DNA of 9,516 nucleotides from a virus (lineage: Duplodnaviria; Heunggongvirae; Uroviricota; Caudoviricetes). The translations under genes were made by a program, and so were the position numbers. The notes beneath the pieces are model-generated. The model had not been told where the DNA came from and searched no databases. It worked only from the letters and a program-made list of their open reading frames with translations. Of the stretch, positions 1 through 9,516 are shown in pieces. Every line of letters begins with the position of its first letter. Within the stretch, counting starts at the first letter, position 1. The DNA lies in IMG/VR virus record IMGVR_UViG_3300029722_000071, positions 1 to 9,516 of that record, one strand, 5' to 3'.

Positions 1-19
1 CTAATGGCGGTATGTGATA

Positions 20-95
20 TGGTGGCCCTTGCTGGATTTGAACCAGCGACCTGGCGATTATGAGTCGCTCGCTCTCACCACTGAGCTAAAGGGCC
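20..95 (-). tRNA. tRNA with CAU anticodon, tRNA-Ile2 (lysidine-type, ileX/ileY/ileZ-like); elongator tRNA-Met not excluded
   Basis: Reverse complement of 20..95 is GGCCCTTTAGCTCAGTGGTGAGAGCGAGCGACTCATAATCGCCAGGTCGCTGGTTCAAATCCAGCAAGGGCCACCA (76 nt): 7-bp acceptor stem, D arm GCTC/GAGC, anticodon loop CTCATAA (anticodon CAT), T arm with GGTTCAAATCC, encoded CCA. Overall pattern matches E. coli tRNA-Ile2 as I recall it. Confidence 0.8.
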
Positions 96-135
96 GGGCG
101 CAGGATAATAACGGTACGTAACTAATCCTGCAATA

Positions 136-1194
136 TCATCCATTCTGACTGACTAAATCCTGTACTTCCCTGACCGTCTGCTCAAAACGTTCAGTCTCCA
201 GCTCAACGCCAGTTGCACGACGCCCCAGCGCCATCGCAGCTTTGACTGTCGAACCCGACCCCATGAAGAAATCTGCAACCAGGTCACCCGGACGACTGCT
301 CGCACTGATTATCTGCTGCAGCATTTCTGCCGGTTTTTCGCACGGATGTTTCCCGGGATAGTACTGCACCGGTTTATGCGTCCACACATCCGTGTACGGT
401 ACCTGCGCAGTTACGCCAAAATACCGCCGCAGATGCTTATATTCACTCTGCAGTTCCGCATACTGCCGGTTCAGTGAAGTATACGTCTCCAGCAGCTGGT
501 GGTGGGGCTTTTCCAGTTCACCGCGCTGATGCTTCTCTTCTGCCACCCGGGCAAACAGCGCCTGTAATTTCAGATAATCGCTTTCGTTCGGTAGCTGCCA
601 CTGACCGGCACTGAACCAGTGCGACACCATGTTTTTCTTTCCTGTGGCATCCACTATCTGTTTTGCCGTTATCCCCAGGGCAGCACGCGCATCACGAAAG
701 TAAGCAATCAGCGGAGCCATCACATGCTGTTTCAGTGCCCTGCCCTTCGCCTCATACCCGGCATCTTTCGGGCGATACGGCCCCTGATAATGTTCCGCGA
801 ACAGAATGCGCTCTGTGGCGGGGAAATACGCCCTCAGGCTTTCCTTGTTGCACCCGTTCCAGCGTCCGGACGGCTTCGCCCAGATAATATGGTTCAGCAC
901 ACTGAAGCGTTCACGCATCATGATTTCGATATCAGATGCCAGGCGATGGCCACAGAACAGGTAAAGACTTCCGGCAGGTTTCAGCACCCGCCAGAACTGC
1001 GCAAGACACTGGTCCAGCCATTTCAGGTAATCATCGTCGCCCTTCCACTGGTTATCCCAGCCCTCAGGCTTCACTTTAAAGTACGGCGGGTCCGTGACTA
1101 TCAGGTCAACAGAATTTTCGGGTAACGACCGGATAAATTCCAGGCAGTCGGCGTTGATTAACTCACAACTGGATATTTTTACAGTGTTAAACAT
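136..1194 (-). CDS. DNA methyltransferase, beta-class N6-adenine/N4-cytosine type (orphan; no adjacent restriction gene)
   Basis: 352-aa ORF with catalytic DPPY motif near the N-terminus (IVTDPPYF) and the SAM-binding FxGxG motif near the C-terminus (DFFMGSGST), the motif IV-before-motif I order of beta-class amino-MTases. ATG start at 1194. Target sequence cannot be inferred. Confidence 0.85.
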   Translation of the reverse strand: MFNTVKISSCELINADCLEFIRSLPENSVDLIVTDPPYFKVKPEGWDNQWKGDDDYLKWLDQCLAQFWRVLKPAGSLYLFCGHRLASDIEIMMRERFSVLNHIIWAKPSGRWNGCNKESLRAYFPATERILFAEHYQGPYRPKDAGYEAKGRALKQHVMAPLIAYFRDARAALGITAKQIVDATGKKNMVSHWFSAGQWQLPNESDYLKLQALFARVAEEKHQRGELEKPHHQLLETYTSLNRQYAELQSEYKHLRRYFGVTAQVPYTDVWTHKPVQYYPGKHPCEKPAEMLQQIISASSRPGDLVADFFMGSGSTVKAAMALGRRATGVELETERFEQTVREVQDLVSQNG

Positions 1195-1330
1195 GGATCA
1201 TTAAGCCTGTCTCTGATAGGCTCATTCTGCTTTTGCGCAAAGCAGTGGGCCTGAGGTTTGCTTGTGATCCGGACGCATGAGCAGATGGCTGGTGAGTGCC
1301 CCTAACACCCACCAGCCGCCCATTTACCAC

Positions 1331-1358
1331 AAATAAAAAAGCCTTCAGGACTGAAGGC
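1331..1358 (-). terminator. Rho-independent terminator for minus-strand transcripts
   Basis: Plus strand 1341..1358 gccttca-ggac-tgaaggc (7-bp stem, 4-nt loop) preceded by aaataaaaaa (1331..1340), so the minus-strand RNA has the hairpin followed by a U-run. Overlaps the stop codon of the 1345..1542 gene. Confidence 0.7.
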
Positions 1359-1542
1359 GTCTGTAACAACCGAACTGATAGTCTGCCAGCCCCGCCATAA
1401 CAAGCTGGGTCAGTATTAACTGACAGCGTTCGCGTGAAAGGTACGTATTCTGTGCAATCTCCCCGACTGTCGCCGGTTCGGTGACGCTTAATTCATTAAA
1501 CACCACTCTGGCGGTTTCGGTCATATCCTGCTGTTTCAGCAT
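1345..1542 (-). CDS. small winged-helix DNA-binding protein (65 aa), hypothetical; FaeA/PapI-like pattern possible
   Basis: Track ORF 1345..1665 shortened to the internal ATG at 1542 (MLKQQDMTETARVV...), which has an AGGGA Shine-Dalgarno about 7 nt upstream; the longer N-terminal extension runs through an upstream terminator hairpin. Sequence TVGEIAQNTYLSRERCQLILTQLVMAG looks like a helix-turn-helix/wing. Confidence 0.5.
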   Translation of the reverse strand: MLKQQDMTETARVVFNELSVTEPATVGEIAQNTYLSRERCQLILTQLVMAGLADYQFGCYRRLQS

Positions 1543-1663
1543 GTCTTTTTCCCTTTTCCGGTTAACGTGACACACCAATAACTCTTGTCGAAAAAGCCAG
1601 CAAGCTGAAAGAACGGTATTAATAACCACCAGCGAATTTATTGCGCTGCTGTATATTACGGAC

Positions 1664-1686
1664 ACAAAAAAACCACCTTCCGGTGG
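1664..1686 (-). terminator. Candidate intrinsic terminator (tR-prime-like) downstream of the Q-like gene
   Basis: Plus 1673..1686 ccacc-ttcc-ggtgg (5-bp GC stem, GGAA tetraloop on the minus strand) preceded by a 7-A run (1666..1672), giving a U7 tract after the hairpin on the minus-strand RNA. About 75 nt downstream of the Q-like stop. Confidence 0.5.
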
Positions 1687-1759
1687 CTTCCTTGTGCGAA
1701 AAAAACTTGCATTTCGCCTCGCGATACAGCCTTGCGAAGCTTATACGGATTGAAGCAGT

Positions 1760-2332
1760 TTATTGATCAGTTTGCAACATTTTTTTCTCTGTAACAAAAG
1801 CCATACGCATGGGGGCATGTAACATAAATTCAGATATCCCCAACCACTGATCAATTCGGCGTCTGCACGTAACCAACGTCCACTCAGGATGATCTGCATT
1901 TAACCTTTCGGCCATTTTCAGTTTGCTCATTCCCCGTCCTTCGTACCTTTGCCGGAGAATATTGATTAGTCCGGGATATTCCCCAAGCACCTCACTGATA
2001 ACGCGATCAATAATCAACGCCTCTGTGTCTGTACAATGTGACAACCAGCTCTTCTGCTTCCCTCTGGTCATATCCCGAAAAAATGCCTCAAGTTCCGGTT
2101 TTTCCAGCCCGGATTTCTTCATTCTGCGTAAAACCTCATTAACTGCTGTTTTCGTCAGCTTTTTCGAAACCAGTAACCGGTTAAACATATTTCCGGATTT
2201 ACCCCCACCGATATACGACCACCGCCCCCACATCCGTAATTTCCCCTGGATCCAGACTGCTTCCAGCGTGTTCAGGCGTAAATGTTCGCCGCTTTTGCCT
2301 GTAATTTCCGGATATATCATATTTACGCTCAC
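1760..2332 (-). CDS. putative late-gene antiterminator Q-like protein (190 aa); function assigned mainly by synteny
   Basis: Lies immediately downstream of rusA with a GTGA stop/start overlap, as Q does in phage 82/DLP12-type lambdoids, and is followed by a promoter-sized gap and a terminator. N-terminal WGRW motif resembles the WGAW of QuuD-type Q proteins as I recall them. No motif-level proof. Confidence 0.5.
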   Translation of the reverse strand: MSVNMIYPEITGKSGEHLRLNTLEAVWIQGKLRMWGRWSYIGGGKSGNMFNRLLVSKKLTKTAVNEVLRRMKKSGLEKPELEAFFRDMTRGKQKSWLSHCTDTEALIIDRVISEVLGEYPGLINILRQRYEGRGMSKLKMAERLNADHPEWTLVTCRRRIDQWLGISEFMLHAPMRMAFVTEKKMLQTDQ

Positions 2333-2694
2333 TCACTCTCAATTTTGTAAATCTTCACACCCAGCCGACCACCAAGAACAAGCTGACCACGTACAATATT
2401 GATTTCATCAAACTGCTCATCGTCCATTAACAACCCCGCATGCGTAAGCGCATCCAGCGGTGCTTTCAGAATATTGTCCAGGTCACGGCGGCGCTTATCC
2501 GGTGGTTCTGCAATAATTTTTATTGCCAACCGTCCGGACAGGCTTAATTTCAAGCGCTGCTGGCGAACAATAAGCGCCACTGCCCGGCGATAACGCTCCC
2601 CGGCTTTTGATACAAAATATGTGCTGCCACGGCGTCGCCAGTAAGTGTTCACCGTCGGCGGGTAAGGCAAAACAAATTCTATGCGTTCGGTCAT
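2329..2694 (-). CDS. rusA: RusA-family Holliday junction resolvase (crossover junction endodeoxyribonuclease)
   Basis: 121-aa product MTERIEFVLPYPPTVNTYWRRRG...PDKRRRDLDNILKAPLDALT...GGRL matches the E. coli RusA pattern (LPWPPS.N.Y, PDRRRRDLDN, GGRL). ATG at 2694 directly follows the upstream stop. Confidence 0.9.
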   Translation of the reverse strand: MTERIEFVLPYPPTVNTYWRRRGSTYFVSKAGERYRRAVALIVRQQRLKLSLSGRLAIKIIAEPPDKRRRDLDNILKAPLDALTHAGLLMDDEQFDEINIVRGQLVLGGRLGVKIYKIESE

Positions 2695-3759
2695 TTATGC
2701 TTTCCACTTCAGAACACCCGAATTTCTCGCGTGCATTAAAAAACGAATCAGCAACAACAGCTGACTGCCGTGTTTCTCTTCAAAATCTTTTACTCCGGCG
2801 TGTAGTTCGTTATGGCATTTACGGCACAGCGGAATAACAAACAAATCGTCAGCCTTTGTTCCCATCCCTCCCAGTCCATGACCAATGATGTGATGCGGAT
2901 CATCTGCCTGATTGCCACACGTCATGCATTTCTGCGTTTTTACCCAGCGCGTGTATACAGGCATCTCTTCCCGTTGTGGTTTCTGGCGCTGGAGATACTG
3001 AGCCGGAGATTCCGGATCAACGGCAATGCTGACCACCGTCTTTTCCTGTGGTGGGTTCTGTTGCTGGTGCTGGTGGACGTGAGGCGGTAGCGCAATATTT
3101 TTTGTGCGCTGCTTCAGTATGCTGGTGGCTGTCTGTTCTCCCGGTACGATGTCGCTCTCACTGTATACGGAGCGGATTTTTTTCACCGGTAATCCCAGTG
3201 AACGACGCAATACAGACTCCGGAAGCGCATCAGCCACCTGATTGCAGACCGCCCACCAGGATAATTCGGCCAGCGATAACTCCCTCTCCTGCGTACCGCT
3301 GATTGCGTGACGGATGACGTCAATCATCCATGCTGACAGGTTTTGATGAGCAAGTTGCCCGAGTGATTCGGATGTCTGGTCACGCAGCTGGTTGTCGCAG
3401 TGCCAGCACAACACCATCGCGCCGGTACCGTAACGATGTATGACGATTTCACTGTGATGATAGTCACCATGAGGCCACTGGCAGGATTTGACATGACGCA
3501 ACAGCCAGTCAGACAGTGCCCCAGCACCACCAGCAGCACGAATCACCCGATCATCGCTGAAAAATGGCAGTAATGATTTATCCTCCGCCAGCGGCTGGCG
3601 AACAGCAGGGACGACTCCGGACGGCAGATTACGCATGCTTTTCGGTTCCGGCTCCACCAGTACCCGGGTATTGTGGAATACCGGCATGGATTCACGGCCC
3701 GGCTTAACGATCACCAGCCCGAGTTCCGGTACCAGAACAGGTCGAAGTAATACCCGCAC
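2695..3759 (-). CDS. DUF968-family (YdfU-like) protein with C-terminal HNH-type zinc-finger nuclease motif
   Basis: 354-aa ORF; C-terminus CMTCGNQADDPHHIIGHGLGG...PLCRKCHNELH has the Cys pairs and His residues of an HNH zinc finger. GTG start at 3759 has a GGAGG Shine-Dalgarno 4 nt upstream. Same position relative to hok as ydfU in the K-12 Qin prophage. Confidence 0.75.
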   Translation of the reverse strand: MRVLLRPVLVPELGLVIVKPGRESMPVFHNTRVLVEPEPKSMRNLPSGVVPAVRQPLAEDKSLLPFFSDDRVIRAAGGAGALSDWLLRHVKSCQWPHGDYHHSEIVIHRYGTGAMVLCWHCDNQLRDQTSESLGQLAHQNLSAWMIDVIRHAISGTQERELSLAELSWWAVCNQVADALPESVLRRSLGLPVKKIRSVYSESDIVPGEQTATSILKQRTKNIALPPHVHQHQQQNPPQEKTVVSIAVDPESPAQYLQRQKPQREEMPVYTRWVKTQKCMTCGNQADDPHHIIGHGLGGMGTKADDLFVIPLCRKCHNELHAGVKDFEEKHGSQLLLLIRFLMHARNSGVLKWKA

Positions 3760-3760
3760 G

Positions 3761-4039
3761 TTACCTCCAGATGCGTTGCTGGAATGTGCGGGACGGACGC
3801 GGTGGGCGTTCAGAGTAAGGAAGCCTGACGGAGATTATCCAGTGACGATAATCGAGGCTGAGGGTTTTCCTAAACTCATACCCACGTCTGCGGTAGTTCT
3901 GAATCAGCCATTCGGCCTGTTCTTCAGTGCATGGGGCGTGCTGTAACCAGTCAGATTTGAATGCATGAGAACGCCGCCCGTGCCTGCTGGCAAAGACGGC
4001 TGAATTATCAGAATTGTATAATTTGGTATCGTGCGCCAT
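3761..4039 (-). CDS. hypothetical protein (92 aa); positional equivalent of rem in Qin-type prophages
   Basis: Track ORF 3761..4120 shortened to the ATG at 4039 (MAHDTKLYNSDNSAVF...), because the TTG-initiated extension overlaps the hok terminator U-tract. No recognisable motif. Confidence 0.5.
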   Translation of the reverse strand: MAHDTKLYNSDNSAVFASRHGRRSHAFKSDWLQHAPCTEEQAEWLIQNYRRRGYEFRKTLSLDYRHWIISVRLPYSERPPRPSRTFQQRIWR

Positions 4040-4110
4040 CGGTTGTCTCTGCTGGCGCAGCAGGTGCCAGTTGTTCAGGCTGGCGTGCGAATTGTAAACC
4101 AGAATGCCAG

Positions 4111-4138
4111 GAAAAAACAAAACCCGCCGAAGCGGGTT
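4111..4138 (-). terminator. Rho-independent terminator of the hok transcript
   Basis: Plus 4121..4138 aacccgc-cgaa-gcgggtt (7-bp stem, UUCG tetraloop on the minus strand) preceded by gaaaaaacaa, giving a U-rich tail on the minus-strand RNA. An additional 9-bp hairpin ggcgaggga/tccctcgcc lies at 4179..4200, where an fbi-like hok 3-prime element would be expected. Confidence 0.75.
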
Positions 4139-4206
4139 AAGTGCGGGTGCGTTGAGGATGCCTGACTCATCAGAGGTGGCGAGGGATTTCTCCCTCGCCA
4201 GGTCTC

Positions 4207-4362
4207 TTACTCCTCAGGTTCGTAAGCTGTGAAGACAGCGACCTCCGTCTGGCCGGTTCGGATTCGTACCTCGCAGAGGTCTTTCCTCGTTACCAGTGCC
4301 GTCACAATGACGGTAATACAGATGACGATCAGGGCGACTAACATCGCCTTTTGCTGCTTCAT
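4207..4362 (-). CDS. hokD: Hok/Gef-family type I toxin (51 aa), HokD/RelF-type
   Basis: Product MKQQKAMLVALIVICITVIVTALVTRKDLCEVRIRTGQTEVAVFTAYEPEE is nearly identical to E. coli K-12 HokD/RelF as I recall it. ATG at 4362 with AAGGAG Shine-Dalgarno; the track ORF extends in-frame to an upstream ATG at 4419. Confidence 0.9.
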   Translation of the reverse strand: MKQQKAMLVALIVICITVIVTALVTRKDLCEVRIRTGQTEVAVFTAYEPEE

Positions 4363-4409
4363 AGCCTGCTTCTCCTTGCCTTTCGGCGTGTAAGAGGCTA
4401 ACCTACATG

Positions 4410-4486
4410 TGACTAGCATGAAATTGGCCTCAGATTAATGTTAAGCGTCCTGCAAGACGCATAATGTTAACTGGGGCTTTTCTCTG
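4410..4486 (+). ncRNA. candidate Sok-like antisense RNA (approximate boundaries)
   Basis: Plus-strand region antisense to the hok leader around the upstream mok-like ATG: long-range stem gcctcag (4427..4433) / ctggggc (4471..4477) enclosing hairpin gcgtc-ctgcaa-gacgc (4445..4460), followed by uuuucucu. Position matches where sok lies in plasmid R1 hok/sok. Promoter not confidently located. Confidence 0.35.
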
Positions 4487-4535
4487 TCTGCCTTACGGTG
4501 GCATGCCCGAGGCAGACAGCCTCAAGCACCCGCAG

Positions 4536-4566
4536 CAATTCTACTTAACTCTCGCTTTACCGCAAA
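4536..4566 (-). promoter_or_regulatory. candidate sigma70 promoter of the hok mRNA
   Basis: On the minus strand: -35 TTGCGG (plus 4560..4565), 16-bp spacer, -10 TAGAAT (plus 4538..4543), about 7 nt before a 5-prime sequence GGUGCUUGAGGCUGUCUGCC that resembles the R1 hok mRNA 5-prime end as I recall it. Confidence 0.4.
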
Positions 4567-4577
4567 CCGTTTTTACC

Positions 4578-4599
4578 CGATATGGGAATTCCCATATCG
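4578..4599. promoter_or_regulatory. 22-bp perfect palindrome just upstream of the hok promoter; candidate protein-binding site
   Basis: cgatatgggaattcccatatcg is a perfect inverted repeat (11-bp arms, no spacer), about 12 bp upstream of the candidate -35. Not followed by a U-run on either strand, so not a terminator. Confidence 0.3.
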
Positions 4600-4607
4600 T
4601 AATGAAT

Positions 4608-4712
4608 TCAGTTCCCTAGTCGATCCATCAAAAACACAACCAGGCAGTAAACACCCACAACAGCAATAACAGCCAGCGCACCTTCCATTGCCAGTGAGAT
4701 ATCATCCGACAC
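4608..4712 (-). CDS. candidate small hydrophobic protein (34 aa) missing from the ORF track
   Basis: Minus strand reads AAAGGAGGGAAT-GTG TCG GAT GAT ATC ... TGA, giving MSDDISLAMEGALAVIAVVGVYCLVVFLMDRLGN: a strong Shine-Dalgarno 4 nt before GTG and one predicted transmembrane helix. Start codon uncertain (in-frame ATG at 4688 would give 26 aa). Confidence 0.3.
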   Translation of the reverse strand: MSDDISLAMEGALAVIAVVGVYCLVVFLMDRLGN

Positions 4713-4827
4713 ATTCCCTCCTTTGGTGTTAATCCCGGCGAACGCTTTTACCCACACCGACAAATAACATATACTAAAAAAGCGATAGCCATAGCAACGC
4801 CTGTAATTGCAAATGCTTCAGGCTAGG

Positions 4828-5745
4828 TCATTGGCGTACCTCCTTCGGCGGTTCTGGTAGCGGCATCCAGTGGGTTACTTTCGATGCCGGTTCTTCCCCA
4901 TTGTCAGTAACTGCCCACCATTTGTTTCTCGAACAATCGTAATACCCTTCGAAGGTATCGCACTCAGTCCAGCCGTAAGACTTACCCCAACACCAAACAT
5001 ACTGTTTATCGTTCGGCATTCGCTCACTACAGCTTATCCAACCATCCGGAGTTACCGGAGAGTTGCCCGATAGTGCATTCTGCTCCAGTGATGCTTTTAC
5101 AAACCACGCTGCCTGAACTATAACGCCATGAATCCAGCGCAAATCAGCATCGCGATCTTTCTTTTTCATCTTTTCGCCACTTAAGGCCTTGCTTATGTGG
5201 CTGCGTACCAGGTCTTCATGCAATTCCTTCGCCTCCTCAATGGTGAAACCACCAGGCAGAAGAGCCGGAGTTACCGGAGAGCTGGTTGACGCTTCCGGGA
5301 TTTCCCGAAAATTATTGGTTGACGAATTCTTGCTTTCCCGAAAGTTTCCGGACTGAAGCATGGCGGTGCGGCAGGCGTTCCATATTTCGGCAGCAATATC
5401 GCGCTCGCTATCGGTTAATTTGTACGTGGAAACATAGCCAGAGAGCATTTCTACGTTTTCCGGAGTTGCTTCTTCCGGCACTACCGGCGCTGGCGGGGCG
5501 GCAAATAGATATCCGCCAAAGTCAGGAAGCTCTCCAATGGCCTGTACGAACTTTTGTTTGCCTACGTCAACTCCTAATGGGTAATGAGCTATAATCTTTG
5601 CCACCGGCTCTGCTTCCAGCGATACCAGTGCAATTCGTGCCAGTTCTTCCGCTTCTTCTGCTGGCAGTACAACGTTGCTACCCGGTCCGTATGTTTCGCG
5701 CCACTGCTTGATTGTCAGCAGTCGCCCTTTGGTAATAGTGATCAT
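4828..5745 (-). CDS. DUF551 domain-containing phage protein (305 aa)
   Basis: C-terminus DGWISCSERMPNDKQYVWCWGKSYGWTECDTFEGYY...VTHWMPLPEPPK matches the DUF551 signature as I recall it. ATG at 5745 overlaps the upstream stop (ATGA). Confidence 0.8.
   Translation of the reverse strand: MITITKGRLLTIKQWRETYGPGSNVVLPAEEAEELARIALVSLEAEPVAKIIAHYPLGVDVGKQKFVQAIGELPDFGGYLFAAPPAPVVPEEATPENVEMLSGYVSTYKLTDSERDIAAEIWNACRTAMLQSGNFRESKNSSTNNFREIPEASTSSPVTPALLPGGFTIEEAKELHEDLVRSHISKALSGEKMKKKDRDADLRWIHGVIVQAAWFVKASLEQNALSGNSPVTPDGWISCSERMPNDKQYVWCWGKSYGWTECDTFEGYYDCSRNKWWAVTDNGEEPASKVTHWMPLPEPPKEVRQ
5046..5062. repeat. 17-bp perfect direct repeat, copy 1, inside the DUF551 gene
   Basis: ccggagttaccggagag at 5046..5062 and again at 5265..5281, 219 bp apart (in frame); both copies encode the S-P-V-T-P peptide. 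Confidence 0.7.
5265..5281. repeat. 17-bp perfect direct repeat, copy 2, inside the DUF551 gene
   Basis: Identical to 5046..5062. Confidence 0.7.
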
Positions 5746-6257
5746 GCCGCGTTTCCTTCTTTCTTATTAACAATCACACCGTCATATATTTCATTAAGGT
5801 GCCCTCTCAACTCCATGCGCCTTAATGCAGATAACATGTAATCGCATTCAACCTGCTTATTCCCAGTAAATGGCTTATCGTCAGGATTACCCCAACAGCA
5901 ATTACCCCTGGGCCATCCATGTACTTTCCGTACTCTTCCGTTAACAACGTGAAGTAATCCCCAGCCGGGAGGTAAATCCTCAACTGAAATAATTTCCGGC
6001 TCACTAATAAAGAATCGCCAGTCGCCCATGCCAAGTGAGGGATTTTTACGGAAACGCTTTTTTCTATCTGCCAACAAGTCAGCACGAGAACACTTCGCCT
6101 CTATCAGGCATGATGCTGAATTTCTGAATCCCATAGCATCTGGCTGTTCTCCGGTACTGGTTACAGCAACAAAGCGGTCATGAAAGCAAACCTTGAACCC
6201 GTTGCGCTTAAGGAACTTGTACGCAATCTGACAGAGTTCGTGGTGTGTTAACGCCAT
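5742..6257 (-). CDS. putative PD-(D/E)xK-fold nuclease-like protein (171 aa)
   Basis: Track ORF 5742..6290 shortened to the ATG at 6257, which sits behind the duplicated GGAGAG-TGA-n-ATG junction. Sequence ...VAVTSTGEQPDAMGF-8 aa-CLIEAKCSRADL has the hydrophobic-strand D ... E-x-K spacing of restriction-endonuclease-like nucleases. Confidence 0.55.
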   Translation of the reverse strand: MALTHHELCQIAYKFLKRNGFKVCFHDRFVAVTSTGEQPDAMGFRNSASCLIEAKCSRADLLADRKKRFRKNPSLGMGDWRFFISEPEIISVEDLPPGWGLLHVVNGRVRKVHGWPRGNCCWGNPDDKPFTGNKQVECDYMLSALRRMELRGHLNEIYDGVIVNKKEGNAA

Positions 6258-6282
6258 ATCACTCTCCTTTGATGCGAATGCC
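6255..6282. repeat. 28-bp duplicated gene-junction module, copy 1
   Basis: cat-a-tcactctcctttgatgcgaatgcc at 6255..6282; apart from one base it is identical to 7098..7125. Encodes the ...GIRIKGE-stop tail of the upstream gene, a GGAGAG Shine-Dalgarno and the ATG of the next gene. Confidence 0.75.
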
Positions 6283-6780
6283 TGTTGCAATGCTGTTTAT
6301 GATGCTGTCAGTGCATGGGGTAGAAAGCTGGGCATCTCCAGCAATTTTCATGACCTCAACATCTGCATATCGAATACCGAGGTGTATCAGACCGGCTATG
6401 CCTGACTTAAGTCGAACATTTTCCATAAACAGATCTTTTTCCCGCTGTTTAGCGGCTTCCAACTCCATCGACAATTTTTCCAACTGCTCTTTATGCTTCT
6501 TGTATTCCTGATACGCGTGCCAAGACTGACCTTTGCGCACACTATCAGTGATATCAGCAACCTGCTCCGGTGTTAGCGTGGTCAGTGGCTGTGCTGGAAA
6601 AATCATCACCTTCCCGGCATCCCAATCAAAACCCGCCTGAATTGACTGAACCTCAACTGATGGTGTTGAACCGATGCGACCAGGCGAATGAACAACGATC
6701 GTTACATCCATATCGCGACGATGGCTGTGGTTGTTGGACAAAATACGATTCACCAACTCAGAAAATTTGGAAAATTTCAT
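6259..6780 (-). CDS. hypothetical coiled-coil protein with C-terminal GIRIKGE tail (173 aa)
   Basis: Track ORF 6259..6909 shortened to the ATG at 6780 ([14 protein letters not shown]...), which overlaps the upstream stop (ATGA). C-terminal ...ATGIRIKGE is shared with the 7102..7851 product. Confidence 0.55.
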
Positions 6781-7100
6781 GCTGATCCCTCTTTTTCTCC
6801 CCGGATAATTCTGTTGCACACATCCACACACTCGTCGCAGATGAAAACGGCGTCCCCAGCAATTAACTTTTTGACGGCGTACTGGGATTTGTTGCAGAAG
6901 CTGCAACAAAGTGTTCGCCTGACTGATAAGGATGGAGCGCCAGATGTCAGCCGCTCCATATCGTTCTTGCGACGCAATATCACACGGCTGAACTCAACCA
7001 GTTTCTCCGGGGATATCTCCTCCTCCGTAGCAAGCGCCTCTAATCGTTCGAGTATGTGGAAGGCTTTTTTCTGGGTAATTGCAGAATGCGATGTGGTCAT
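6777..7100 (-). CDS. small protein with C-terminal ClpX-type C4 zinc-finger domain (107 aa)
   Basis: Track ORF 6777..7142 shortened to the ATG at 7100, behind the conserved junction. C-terminal [39 protein letters not shown] closely parallels the ClpX N-terminal zinc-binding domain ([39 protein letters not shown], as I recall it). Confidence 0.75.
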
Positions 7101-7125
7101 CTCACTCTCCTTTGATGCGAATGCC
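7098..7125. repeat. 28-bp duplicated gene-junction module, copy 2
   Basis: cat-c-tcactctcctttgatgcgaatgcc at 7098..7125; see copy 1. Confidence 0.75.
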
Positions 7126-7851
7126 AGCGGCGCGGGAATCATTCCATCGCTTTACTTCTTCACGAATTACGTCAATGCACTCTTTCGAATCCATTAGGTA
7201 ATCTTCATCAAAAAGACGTTCCTGTTCGTTTTCTATCGCAACAATGATTGCTTCAACTAACTTTTGTGCCTGAGAACCACTTTCTAACTCTGCAATGCGC
7301 TTCTCTGCGGCTTCCAGATTCTCGCGCATATCGTCAACGTACTCGACCAGAGATCCGCCAGCAGGAATTTCGCATTCCTCGACCAGTTGGAAGTAGATAT
7401 CAGCTGCGGCCCGTGTGTTGCTATGCCTAGCGTCGCCCATCTCACCTTCACGAAGAGCATCGCGTTCGGCGGTAAGATTGGCTATTTTGCTGTCTTTGCC
7501 TTCCAGCTCAACGCGCAGCCTCCCAACCGTAAGCGCAATATCCTCGTTCTCCTGATCGCGGCTTTTGATGTATTGCAGGTTTCTTTCCCGTTCATCCAGC
7601 AGTGCCAGCACGGTAGCCGGGTTAGCCTCTGCTATGAATTCAGCGTTTGCATAAGCCTGAGCATCTGTTTCAACCAGGCAGTTAACGTGACATTCTGCAA
7701 TTACGCCACCGGGTTCTCCTTTCCATTTTTGACAAACAAAAACTCCTGTTAAATTGCCGTGTTGGTTAACAGATGTATGCCCTACGATGTAGCTTCCTTT
7801 AGTTGCTTTCTCTGCCTTTTCACGCAGTGCCTGATAGTTAATCTCGCTCAC
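7102..7851 (-). CDS. ead/Ea22-like coiled-coil protein (249 aa); family assignment tentative
   Basis: GTG start with GGAGG Shine-Dalgarno, overlapping the upstream stop (GTGA). N-terminus [17 protein letters not shown] and the segment [18 protein letters not shown] resemble prophage ead/Ea22-like proteins as I recall them; C-terminal ...AAGIRIKGE. Confidence 0.55.
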
Positions 7852-8072
7852 TCTTCATCCTCCAAGTCGGCAACGGCGTCCATCACATCAGAACCGCGAA
7901 TAACCTCAAAAGCACGGCAGGCCATTTGAAATACCAGTTGCTCTTGCGGGTGAGGAGACTCCCAATATTTGAAGCCTGGGCGATGCGTGTACCCCATCAT
8001 TGAATAAAAATCACCAGCAAGCTTAATCGCGGCATCGACAAGCTCTCTGTTAGTCATTCTTTTTCCGCTCAC
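7848..8072 (-). CDS. hypothetical protein (74 aa), mildly acidic C-terminus
   Basis: GTG start at 8072 with AAGGAGG Shine-Dalgarno 6 nt upstream, overlapping the upstream stop (GTGA). No recognisable motif. Confidence 0.55.
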   Translation of the reverse strand: MSGKRMTNRELVDAAIKLAGDFYSMMGYTHRPGFKYWESPHPQEQLVFQMACRAFEVIRGSDVMDAVADLEDEE

Positions 8073-8500
8073 TGGTTGCCTCCTTTGCGAAGCTGGGCAG
8101 CAAAGTCAACTAACCACTCAGTCATTTCAACCTTCCCTACCAGGTCTGAACCAGGGTACATACAGCAATCACTCTGCGCCGCTTTGAAATCCTTATACTC
8201 ATATTCTTGGGCCACCAGATTTTTTGCAGCTTCTATAGCAGCATCCACCCCCTGCGCCCGGACTTCAGCCAGGAAAGCATCAGTGGCTGGCATATTTCCT
8301 GTTGCCTTCATTGCCTCCAAAATAACCAGAACGCCATCTCGCCCAATCTCCTCGCAGATAACCTCGGTGCTGTCGCCAACAACATCGCAAAATGCCTGAA
8401 CTGCTTTACGAGCCAGCGCATCTTCCGCCCTGTGAAACGCCTCGCGGTTGAAATTTTCATATCCCGTCATTGGACCGGCAATATAAACTCTCACCCTCAC
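8069..8500 (-). CDS. hypothetical protein with DUF4406 / nucleoside 2-deoxyribosyltransferase-like N-terminal motif (143 aa)
   Basis: GTG start at 8500 with AGGAGG Shine-Dalgarno. N-terminus MRVRVYIAGPMTGYENFNREAFHRAEDAL matches the YIAGPMTG...N..F..A DUF4406 signature as I recall it; the C-terminal MYPGSDLVGKVEMTEW may correspond to its LPGWE.S.G motif. The roughly 80 residues between do not look like that family. Confidence 0.5.
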   Translation of the reverse strand: MRVRVYIAGPMTGYENFNREAFHRAEDALARKAVQAFCDVVGDSTEVICEEIGRDGVLVILEAMKATGNMPATDAFLAEVRAQGVDAAIEAAKNLVAQEYEYKDFKAAQSDCCMYPGSDLVGKVEMTEWLVDFAAQLRKGGNQ

Positions 8501-8889
8501 TCCATCACCTCCTGAAAGTTTCCCCGATAGAACGCCAGCACACGCTGCATAACTTCGCTCCTCCTGCTCTCACGACAAATTATGTTCTGCCGTCTGTTGT
8601 AACGACGTATTTCTCCGTCAGGTAACTTTCGAATCAGTGTCGGGTCAGCAGCCTTCTCCGGTGTCTTACGCCATACGCGATACGCCTGCTCTGATGGAAA
8701 TACCCCGCAACCAGAGAGCCAGACATCACCACTGGCCGCAAGCGCACCAGATAAACGACGAATAGCGGTCTTACTGACACCCGTTTTATCTGCCAGTTGT
8801 CGAAAAGTTTCTCGTCCGCTCAGGCGCACGAATTCCACAATGCGCGCCTTCACTTCTTCCCGCTCTTCTGGTGTAAATACTTTTGCCAT
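8497..8889 (-). CDS. helix-turn-helix DNA-binding protein (130 aa), hypothetical
   Basis: Track ORF 8497..8904 (TTG start) shortened to the ATG at 8889, which has a GGAGG Shine-Dalgarno 5 nt upstream. HTH-like segment ETFRQLADKTGVSKTAIRRLSGAL. Confidence 0.55.
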   Translation of the reverse strand: MAKVFTPEEREEVKARIVEFVRLSGRETFRQLADKTGVSKTAIRRLSGALAASGDVWLSGCGVFPSEQAYRVWRKTPEKAADPTLIRKLPDGEIRRYNRRQNIICRESRRSEVMQRVLAFYRGNFQEVME

Positions 8890-8904
8890 AAGCGCCTCCG
8901 GCAA

Positions 8905-9486
8905 TCACTTTTCCGACACAATACGACCGGATGAATCGACAATCTGTCGAACAATATCCCGGTGCTTGTTCAGCTCCCGCAGCGCGGCGCAGACTCGCTC
9001 CCACTTCTGAACCTGACCTTTTGCCCGGCGCAGCTCGCGGTTAGCCACATGCAGCGATGGTAAAATCAGACCATCCGGATGTTTTCTGGTGAACGACGGC
9101 TGTGACTGCACTGTGACCGCCACACTTTCCGTTTTTATTTCTTCCTGTGTTTCTGCTTCCCGGACAGGTAACGCAACACCTGCTGGCTGAGGAAAGGCTT
9201 TACCATCGGTTTCCGCTACGGATGCAGCTTCCGGCTCTGCCGGTAAATCAGCGCCCGGTATGCAGTAACGAAATTTACCGCCCTGATTCACGCGAATCAG
9301 ACGCCCTTTGCTGATTGCCATGGCCAGCGATGAATTCGCCCGGCGGGAGGTAATCCCGAACATCAGTGCCAGCTCATCCGCCGTTTGTGGGCCATGTTGT
9401 TCAATCGCCTCAGTCAACATTTGCGCTGTCACTTTCGGTACCGGTGACACCGGTTCACTTTCACCAGCCTGAATCAGCCACCACAT
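8905..9486 (-). CDS. hypothetical protein with N-terminal winged-helix-like region (193 aa); may extend beyond the window
   Basis: ATG at 9486 has an AAGGG Shine-Dalgarno-like sequence upstream, but the frame stays open to the window end at 9516, so the true start could lie outside. No recognisable catalytic motif. Confidence 0.5.
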
Positions 9487-9516
9487 CGAACCCTTGTTAT
9501 CCGCTTCACCGCGGCG

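Follow-up and report, generated by a model that had tools for sequence, protein, structure and literature searches.

Introduction

Boundary or 'linker' sequences are a concept of the modular theory of lambdoid phage evolution (Susskind and Botstein 1978; Clark et al. 2001 on HK620; both as cited in PMC3233612). PMC3233612 also states the rival view of illegitimate recombination, and whether mosaicism is targeted or random is a long-running question. Here we analysed a 9,516-nt stretch of DNA, called the window, from a virus of the Caudoviricetes (positions 1 to 9,516 of IMG/VR record IMGVR_UViG_3300029722_000071), in which one short sequence, linker-1, occupies two gene junctions. It comprises a 24-nt core, one base N and ATG, often with 9 more bases upstream. 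With a probability of about 0.72, we read linker-1 as a conserved boundary sequence that would serve both as a translational junction and as a short homology patch for module exchange. As such it adds a strong new case for a model of boundary sequences that is already known.

Linker-1 shares with the modular-theory linkers, as PMC3233612 presents them, a short conserved sequence at a boundary, non-homologous modules on either side and the proposed role of a homologous-recombination target, and HK620 itself bears linker-1 between hkaG and hkaF. Unlike the linkers of that account, it lies mostly within the upstream coding sequence and gives unrelated proteins a common 7-aa tail. It also doubles as a full unit of stop, ribosome-binding site and start, and its partner diversity is quantified here. 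No phage paper mentioning the tail peptide or the DNA string was found in the searchable literature, not counting Clark et al. 2001; the DNA strings appeared in just two papers, both unrelated.

The closest functional analogue is the promoter-early stem-loop (PeSL) of T4-type phages, a kind of 'mobile regulatory cassettes' credited with modular shuffling (PMC2839356, PMC4122927). In both cases repeated short expression signals flank variable accessory open reading frames (ORFs), the repeats bound insertions, deletions or replacements between close relatives and the recombinants stay expressed. Such repeat-bounded differences are found at linker-1 between the window and two related loci (L037 and L115), and as alternative right-hand genes on identical left-hand alleles. 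The PeSL is transcriptional, with a promoter and a terminator hairpin, and intergenic, whereas linker-1 is translational, overlaps the end of a coding sequence and is found in temperate phages of the lambdoid and P1-like types. It falls outside the PeSL definition, as no promoter, terminator or significant hairpin was found at the site.

Rad52-like phage recombinases drive mosaic formation with prophages, and the minimal efficient pairing segment is 23–27 bp for Red-beta and 31–34 bp for RecA (De Paepe et al. 2014, PMC3945230). That work supplies the likely enzymology for the present locus, with short identical segments being enough and prophages serving as donors. The mosaics there are flanked by longer diverged homologies, whereas one nearly minimal identical patch is reused here at many junctions. 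Integron attC cassettes are likewise promoterless genes bounded by a recurring short element at which they are gained or lost. Linker-1, in contrast, comes without an integrase, imperfect inverted repeats, a folded single-strand site or attI, and is most likely exchanged via general homology.

A repeated translational junction

The genes of the window all lie on the minus strand, in the order A, B, C, D and E for those considered here, and linker-1 joins A to B and C to D (Table 1). A repeat search of the window gave the two copies as a 28-nt direct repeat of 96% identity (27/28). The pattern GGCATTCGCATCAAAGGAGAGTGANATG has exactly two matches in the window, both on the minus strand, and none of 200 dinucleotide-preserving shuffles held a linker-1 match even at three mismatches. 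When 220 nt around each copy were aligned, the identity consisted of the 24-mer and the ATG, with N differing and the flanks unrelated.

Read in frame, the 24-mer is GGC ATT CGC ATC AAA GGA GAG TGA, or GIRIKGE and a stop. Its AAGGAG ribosome-binding site is separated by 6 nt from the ATG, and the TGA ends 1 nt before the ATG. This geometry fits a translationally coupled junction, with the ribosome-binding site within the upstream ORF, in the range of 5–9 nt from the start, and the stop and start a few nucleotides apart. Judged from its sequence, linker-1 is a self-contained translational junction: the left gene has its final seven codons and TGA from it, and the right gene its ribosome-binding site and start.

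An original prediction, made from the letters of the window alone, had described a duplicated 28-bp junction, the peptide GIRIKGE at the ends of both genes A and C and the same DNA as the source of the Shine-Dalgarno sequence and ATG of both the ClpX-finger gene (B, starting at 7100) and the PD-(D/E)xK-like gene (D, starting at 6257). The searches, shuffles and alignment above bear out the first of these points, and our gene calls agree with the other two.

In another frame (6258–6290 and 7101–7142, minus strand), linker-1 encodes ...AFASKES(D/E)M. ORF finders and many database entries run genes D and B 5'-ward across linker-1, a recurrent start-site artefact of annotation seen in the 182-aa and 121-aa ORFs of the window and in the database homologues P0001, P0005 and P0006. 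The linker in general calls for caution over two annotation artefacts: a C-terminal tail found in identical form on unrelated proteins may stem from the linker, and gene callers often place the downstream start too far 5', so that the called gene runs through the linker.

Recurrence between different gene pairs

An exact-match scan of IMG/VR for the 28-mer found at least 119 contigs. Junctions with at least 150 nt on both sides were taken as usable, which gave 118 among the matches listed, and their flanks were clustered. These listed junctions combine 12 upstream with 18 downstream flank families in 52 combinations. The downstream partners include gene D, the commonest with 23/118, several fusions of DUF551 and dATP/dGTP pyrophosphohydrolase, the ClpX-finger gene, small zinc-ribbon-like ORFs and unknowns. 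Thus, a BLASTN-type check suggested with the original prediction, for the 28-mer between different gene pairs, came out positive.

The reassortment is recent, since identical 150-nt alleles stand beside unrelated partners. Among the matches listed, one exact 150-nt upstream allele meets five unrelated downstream families, and 89 junction pairs are identical across 150 nt upstream and unrelated downstream. Linker-1 has the features of a boundary sequence, being short, conserved, at a gene boundary twice in the window and between non-homologous gene pairs in different phages, with homology of genomes starting or stopping at it.

A 37-nt linker-1 query matched 427 GenBank phage records, many Stx phages among them. 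Lambda, HK620 (at the hkaG/hkaF junction), P7 and VT1-Sakai gave full or near-full matches, phiV10 and Salmonella SE21 partial ones, P1 and D6 short and weak ones, and ES18 a diverged one (83%). With a 33-nt query, 3073 of the 5426 complete E. coli genomes had matches. These come to ~6700 places, 416 of them on plasmids, and a genome has up to 11, the median being 2. By marker genes, the copies occur in both nin-type and exo-xis/xis-type neighbourhoods. Linker-1 belongs to accessory-gene regions of the temperate phages of E. coli, Shigella and Salmonella.

As a control, 80 loci picked without regard to the tail were scanned for common 20-mers. Among the 2747 that were common to at least 15 loci, the linker-1 20-mers rank first in two-sided flank diversity, with 10 x 10–11 clusters.

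Positions of the exchanges

The base N tracks the downstream family. Among the matches listed, it is T in D0 (23/23) and D2 (15/15) and G in D4 (11/11) and mostly in D1 (18/21), while being mixed within upstream families. The 5' extension CGCGCCGCT tracks the upstream family. With N going along with the downstream side and CGCGCCGCT with the upstream side, these patterns suggest that the crossovers fall inside the 24-mer. Exact identity between families mostly reaches 0–4 nt past the 5' edge of the core and 0–1 nt past the ATG. It reaches 9–12 nt further 5' in a subset because five to six families have CGCGCCGCT in common, and the linker is 33–37 nt long in the families bearing it.

Homology breakpoints of the window against related loci cluster at 6270–6282 and 7093–7101. 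Two related contigs, L037 and L115, match 5600–6282 at 97.4% and 7098–7305 at 97.1%. What the blocks have in common is exactly the 28 nt of the linker, so both loci have A directly on D without precisely 843 bp (Table 1). Such a structure would be expected of recombination between direct repeats, or of insertion at a single linker. A comparison of related prophages had been proposed as a further check, and this joining of A to D via one linker copy is an example of the alternative arrangements that it brought to light.

Proposed mechanism and points against it

Since the same bases stand between otherwise unrelated modules, linker-1 would act as a short homology patch. Single-strand-annealing recombinases such as Red-beta, RecT and Erf, or RecA, could cross over within it during co-infection or in exchange with resident prophages. 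A crossover inside the core would join any left module to any right module. Because the linker holds the left stop and the right ribosome-binding site and start, every crossover product would be in frame and translatable. Where a genome has two copies, the segment between them could be deleted or inserted.

Recombination partners are available, with more than one copy spread over the prophages of many E. coli genomes. In length, the 24-nt core and the 33–37-nt extended form lie at the reported pairing thresholds of Red-beta and RecA. From these comparisons we infer homologous recombination as the mechanism.

Several points weigh against this reading. A length of 24 nt is at the low end of efficient recombinase use, the evidence is wholly comparative with no recombination event observed, and translation alone accounts for part of the conservation, namely the ribosome-binding site, stop and start. 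The first joining of each partner to the linker needs a non-homologous or microhomology event, which is outside the model; microhomology at ribosome-binding-site/ATG regions is a plausible route. The breakpoints cluster as strongly or more strongly at ~7500 in the Ea22 coiled coil and at ~7845 at the Ea22 start of gene A. Most IMG/VR contigs have one linker-1 copy, and L046 is the only one of the IMG/VR loci with two.

Another such point comes from the nearest sister prophage, in E. coli 99RCEF. It is ~99% identical on both sides and has a single Ea22-like gene made of the N-terminal part of A and the C-terminal part of C. The switch falls in a ~10-nt coiled-coil microhomology, GAGnTGGAAG (~6450 and ~7500 in the window; 2209–2215 in L240), and not in the linker. 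Hence, short-homology exchange is general in this region and the linker is one of several joints. Among the others are a second linker (linker-2, Table 1), the Ea22 coiled-coil segment and the Ea22 start.

The original prediction had spoken of cassette shuffling at the linker by homologous recombination. The recombining flanks support the exchange of modules. With a single copy in most contigs, the usual event would be a single crossover at the linker, and the excision of a two-copy cassette would be exceptional, so this part of the claim is to be narrowed.

Translation as a possible sole constraint

The strongest rival, unlikely in our estimate, holds that the linker is kept solely as an element of translation initiation and coupling and is not a recombination target, the junctions having arisen by random illegitimate joints and selection (Hendrix's 'illegitimate recombination plus selection'). 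The placing of AAGGAG, stop and start is in its favour. Other Ea22 tails solve the same problem otherwise, ...KGEAS-stop with an ATGA overlap and IRIKGGE-stop with TAA. Random joints, however, would scatter, and instead 18 unrelated downstream genes among the matches listed begin at the same base after the 24-mer. Invariance extends equally to the 12 bases that precede the ribosome-binding site (GGCATTCGCATC). Moreover, the 843-bp difference is repeat-bounded with its 28-nt overlap, and N segregates with the downstream partner.

Other hosts bear on the same rival. In Klebsiella prophages, an Ea22-like gene is followed by a homologue of gene D (75% identical to the window protein by BLASTP). 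The junction there reads GCCGCCGCTGGCATCAAG(T/G)(G)GGAGGCTGAGTGATG, encodes the tail AAAGIK(W/V)EAE-stop and is common to two different upstream modules. This counterpart of the linker, GCCGCCGCTGGCATCAAGKGGGAGGCTGAGTGATG, lies ~40 nt before position 2501 or 2329 in L325–L328. In favour of translation as the sole constraint, it preserves GGAG, stop and start with the rest altered. At the same distance before position 2501 or 2329 in L331–L332, the Serratia homologue of D has the remnant TGGCATTCGCA...GGAGGTAGTGATG alone, and Morganella has none. Across these versions the peptide is not conserved and the ribosome-binding site, stop and start are. They suggest that each host-specific phage pool has its own homogenised linker version.

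The core has a pairwise diversity of 2.2% over all haplotype pairs, including those unrelated on both sides. Within families, the flanks have a diversity of 1.5% upstream and 5.7% downstream. The core is thus like the flanks within families. Its conservation can do without special purifying selection, for which these values give no support, and this is a point in favour of the main reading.

A second linker and a possible cassette system

The second-ranked k-mer of the control scan, linker-2, resembles linker-1 in layout and in its combinatorial junctions. The upstream gene has the tail ...AAQLRKGGNQ-stop from it, the ribosome-binding site within it is AAGGAGG, and the TGA of linker-2 shares bases with the GTG at which the next gene starts. 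Its IMG/VR junctions number 146, with 17 upstream and 20 downstream flank families in 66 pairs. Downstream of linker-2 there usually begins an Ea22-like gene (e.g. VSKIDYQALRE...), so Ea22-type genes typically have linker-2 at their 5' side and linker-1 at their 3' side.

A wider reading, which we regard as unlikely, is that the two linkers form an integrase-free cassette system. Each would be a universal adaptor of stop, ribosome-binding site and start around Ea22-type genes and their neighbours, homogenised within each host-specific pool and perhaps kept for exchangeability. Upkeep of such adaptors may let accessory genes stay exchangeable between phages, even between leftward and rightward early operons. 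The PD-(D/E)xK nuclease or another factor might stimulate breaks.

The GIRIKGE tail and Ea22-type genes

According to the literature, Ead/Ea22-like proteins (PF13935) combine a common coiled coil with variable domains, and the set of genes downstream of ea22 varies too (PMC7093339, PMC8614690). The proteins have a conserved '+GE' (K/R-G-E) C-terminal end, whose significance was reported as unknown (PMC7093339). A pro-lysogenic effect of Ea22 has been reported. Gene A is a member of this family, and the ea22 gene of phage lambda ends in the identical 24-mer. The lambda copy is followed by GATCGG, so the ATG was lost there. In difference from the published tripeptide, the conserved unit here is 24–37 nt of DNA and ends non-Ea22 genes too.

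We compiled 75 Ea22-like ORFs from IMG/VR by N-terminal and coiled-coil motif queries without the tail, plus three apparently genuine genome-contig loci (two of Escherichia sp. and one of Shimwellia) pooled with the IMG/VR loci in the tally. The exact 24-mer ends 42/75 and the one-base variant DIRIKGE ends 8/75, next to several other close variants, and a KGE end is found in 54/75. Linker-1 is thus the canonical 3' end of Ead/Ea22-like genes including lambda ea22. A non-Ea22 protein family, annotated XF1762 with a weak Mom-like Pfam match, bears the same tail. The repeat had been called otherwise unexplained, with its tail on two different genes; the tail is family-typical of Ead/Ea22-like genes and hence no coincidence, and it is found on a non-Ea22 family as well.

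A functional role of GIRIKGE at the C-terminus of Ea22-type proteins, as a tag for interaction or degradation with the DNA identity as a by-product of selection on the protein, seems very improbable. The frequent KGE end in ORFs sampled without regard to the tail and the published '+GE' end do speak for it. However, single-base variants of the core are mostly non-synonymous (the eight DIRIKGE, GIRLKGE and GICIKGE, against one synonymous type), the tail is also on the XF1762/Mom-like family and the Klebsiella counterpart is GIKWEAE or GIKVEAE. Codon usage is moreover invariant across unrelated C-terminal domains, and K-G-E is AAGGAG in that frame. This last point offers a likely explanation of the '+GE' tail, as the ribosome-binding site AAGGAG of the next gene read in frame (AAA GGA GAG). 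Lambda retains the tail despite its lost ATG, which counts for the rival with translation as the sole constraint.

A search of assemblies with trimmed Ea22 for the species range was largely uninformative, many matches being identical lambda-like ea22 fragments. These fragments (L127–L161), some on ~48-kb contigs, were in assemblies from unrelated organisms, among them Streptomyces, Streptococcus, Prevotella, Pseudomonas and Bacillus. They look like contamination of public assemblies with lambda DNA.

A possible dedicated enzyme, or chance

Linker-1 might instead be the target of a dedicated enzyme that mobilises the adjacent genes, be it a site-specific recombinase, a homing-type nuclease such as D, or Ea22. 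The predicted PD-(D/E)xK nuclease is its commonest right neighbour, and the 11-nt remnant TGGCATTCGCA still stands ahead of the Serratia D homologue. Yet ~80% of the junctions among the matches listed are without D, and no recombinase gene adjoins the linker in the window. The linker has no dyad symmetry or stable fold (z = +0.7 to -1.6) and no Rfam match, and its copies are in very different phages (lambda, HK620, P1/P7, phiV10) with no obvious common candidate enzyme. We hold such an enzyme to be most unlikely.

Two other kinds of element were considered and rejected. A structured RNA or attC-like site had no Rfam match at E <= 1, fold energies like those of shuffles and no inverted repeat at the site. 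As to a promoter or terminator element, no site was found at the linker and no excess over shuffles in the region.

The full A-B-C-D arrangement in just 2/5426 complete E. coli genomes could point to a match by chance, or to a local duplication private to this prophage. Both are practically refuted already by the 0/200 shuffles, the unrelated flanks and the widespread sequence.

For the targeted model of mosaicism, linker-1 offers an unusually clean, abundant and experimentally accessible case, with 24–37 identical bases in more than half of the complete E. coli genomes. On the practical side, it flags a site at which early accessory genes are reshuffled in Stx and other prophages.

Genes of the window and their prophage

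A prophage of E. coli DETEC-S792 (NZ_CP116067.1) contains the A-D block (5742–7851) at 100% identity. The block sits in the rightward early operon, downstream of replication, DUF1627 and DUF977 genes, and is followed by hokD, DUF968/HNH, RusA, a Q-like DUF1133 protein, a DNA methyltransferase and tRNAs. The block is a nin-type accessory region. No integrase was found among the window genes or within 9 kb on either side in the source genome.

Table 1. Linker copies, the segment between them and the genes that they join
Feature	Positions	Strand	Description
Linker-1 at A/B junction	7098..7125	minus	GGCATTCGCATCAAAGGAGAGTGA-G-ATG; core 7102-7125; TGA 7102-7104; N = G at 7101; gene B ATG 7098-7100
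Linker-1 at A/B junction, extended form	upstream end at 7134	minus	CGCGCCGCT + core
Linker-1 at C/D junction	6255..6282	minus	GGCATTCGCATCAAAGGAGAGTGA-T-ATG; core 6259-6282; N = T at 6258; gene D ATG 6255-6257
Linker-2	8068..8089	minus	CGCAAAGGAGGCAACCAGTGAG
843-bp segment	6283..7125	minus	One linker copy, gene B and gene C; exactly missing from L037 and L115
Gene A	7102..7851	minus	249 aa; Ead/Ea22-like, PF13935, E = 9e-33
Gene B	6777..7100	minus	107 aa; ClpX C4-type zinc finger (Pfam E = 1.3e-15); stop overlaps gene C start
Gene C	6259..6780	minus	173 aa; no Pfam match
Gene D	5742..6257	minus	171 aa; predicted PD-(D/E)xK nuclease fold
Gene E	4828..5745	minus	305 aa; DUF551

Gene A scores 114 bits against the Pfam Ead_Ea22 model, with a cut-off of 27, and its GTG start overlaps the stop of an upstream 74-aa gene. 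In gene C, the C-terminal half corresponds to the C-terminal module of 'U0', an Ea22-like subfamily, and the N-terminus is unrelated. Gene C is a hybrid of an Ea22-like C-terminal module fused to a different N-terminus. Both proteins end in KGE. A BLASTP match between them is confined to the tail, a 13/28 stretch including GIRIKGE, and homology of A and C beyond the tail was rejected as BLASTP recovers the tail alone. The two upstream genes had been taken as different, which is not wholly so, A being Ead/Ea22 and C having an Ea22-like C-terminal module.

Gene D is assigned from fold comparison. Its confident fold model has a predicted restriction-endonuclease-like fold with the D...(D/E)xK motif, and D40, E53 and K55 are invariant in the family. 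Sequence-family searches of gene D in Pfam, NCBIfam and PDB sequences gave no match. The family has 308 homologues, conserved across Enterobacterales, and the ORF is intact here. RefSeq gives gene D in the source genome merely as a short 'frameshifted' pseudogene.

Gene E has internal short direct repeats (5283–5313/5316–5346 and 5046–5065/5265–5284). RefSeq splits it into two partial DUF551 pseudogenes, and it may be a fusion of two DUF551-type genes. A 143-aa ORF (8069–8500, minus strand) also looks chimeric: its ~30 N-terminal residues match DUF4406 (nucleoside 2-deoxyribosyltransferase-like) and the remainder matches other PHROG modules. RefSeq has two partial pseudogenes there, DUF4406 and HNH endonuclease.

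A Hok/Gef-family toxin gene, hokD in the source genome, is at 4207–4419 on the minus strand with inverted repeats nearby (4172–4205 and 4473–4530). Such inverted repeats are typical of a hok/sok-type locus, here in a prophage accessory region. A tRNA with a CAT anticodon at 20–95, minus strand, is tRNA-Met by ARAGORN versus tRNA-Ile by RefSeq, and an Ile2 tRNA of the lysidine type would be consistent with this. In the source genome, three tRNA genes are clustered downstream of the methyltransferase, and this one comes first.

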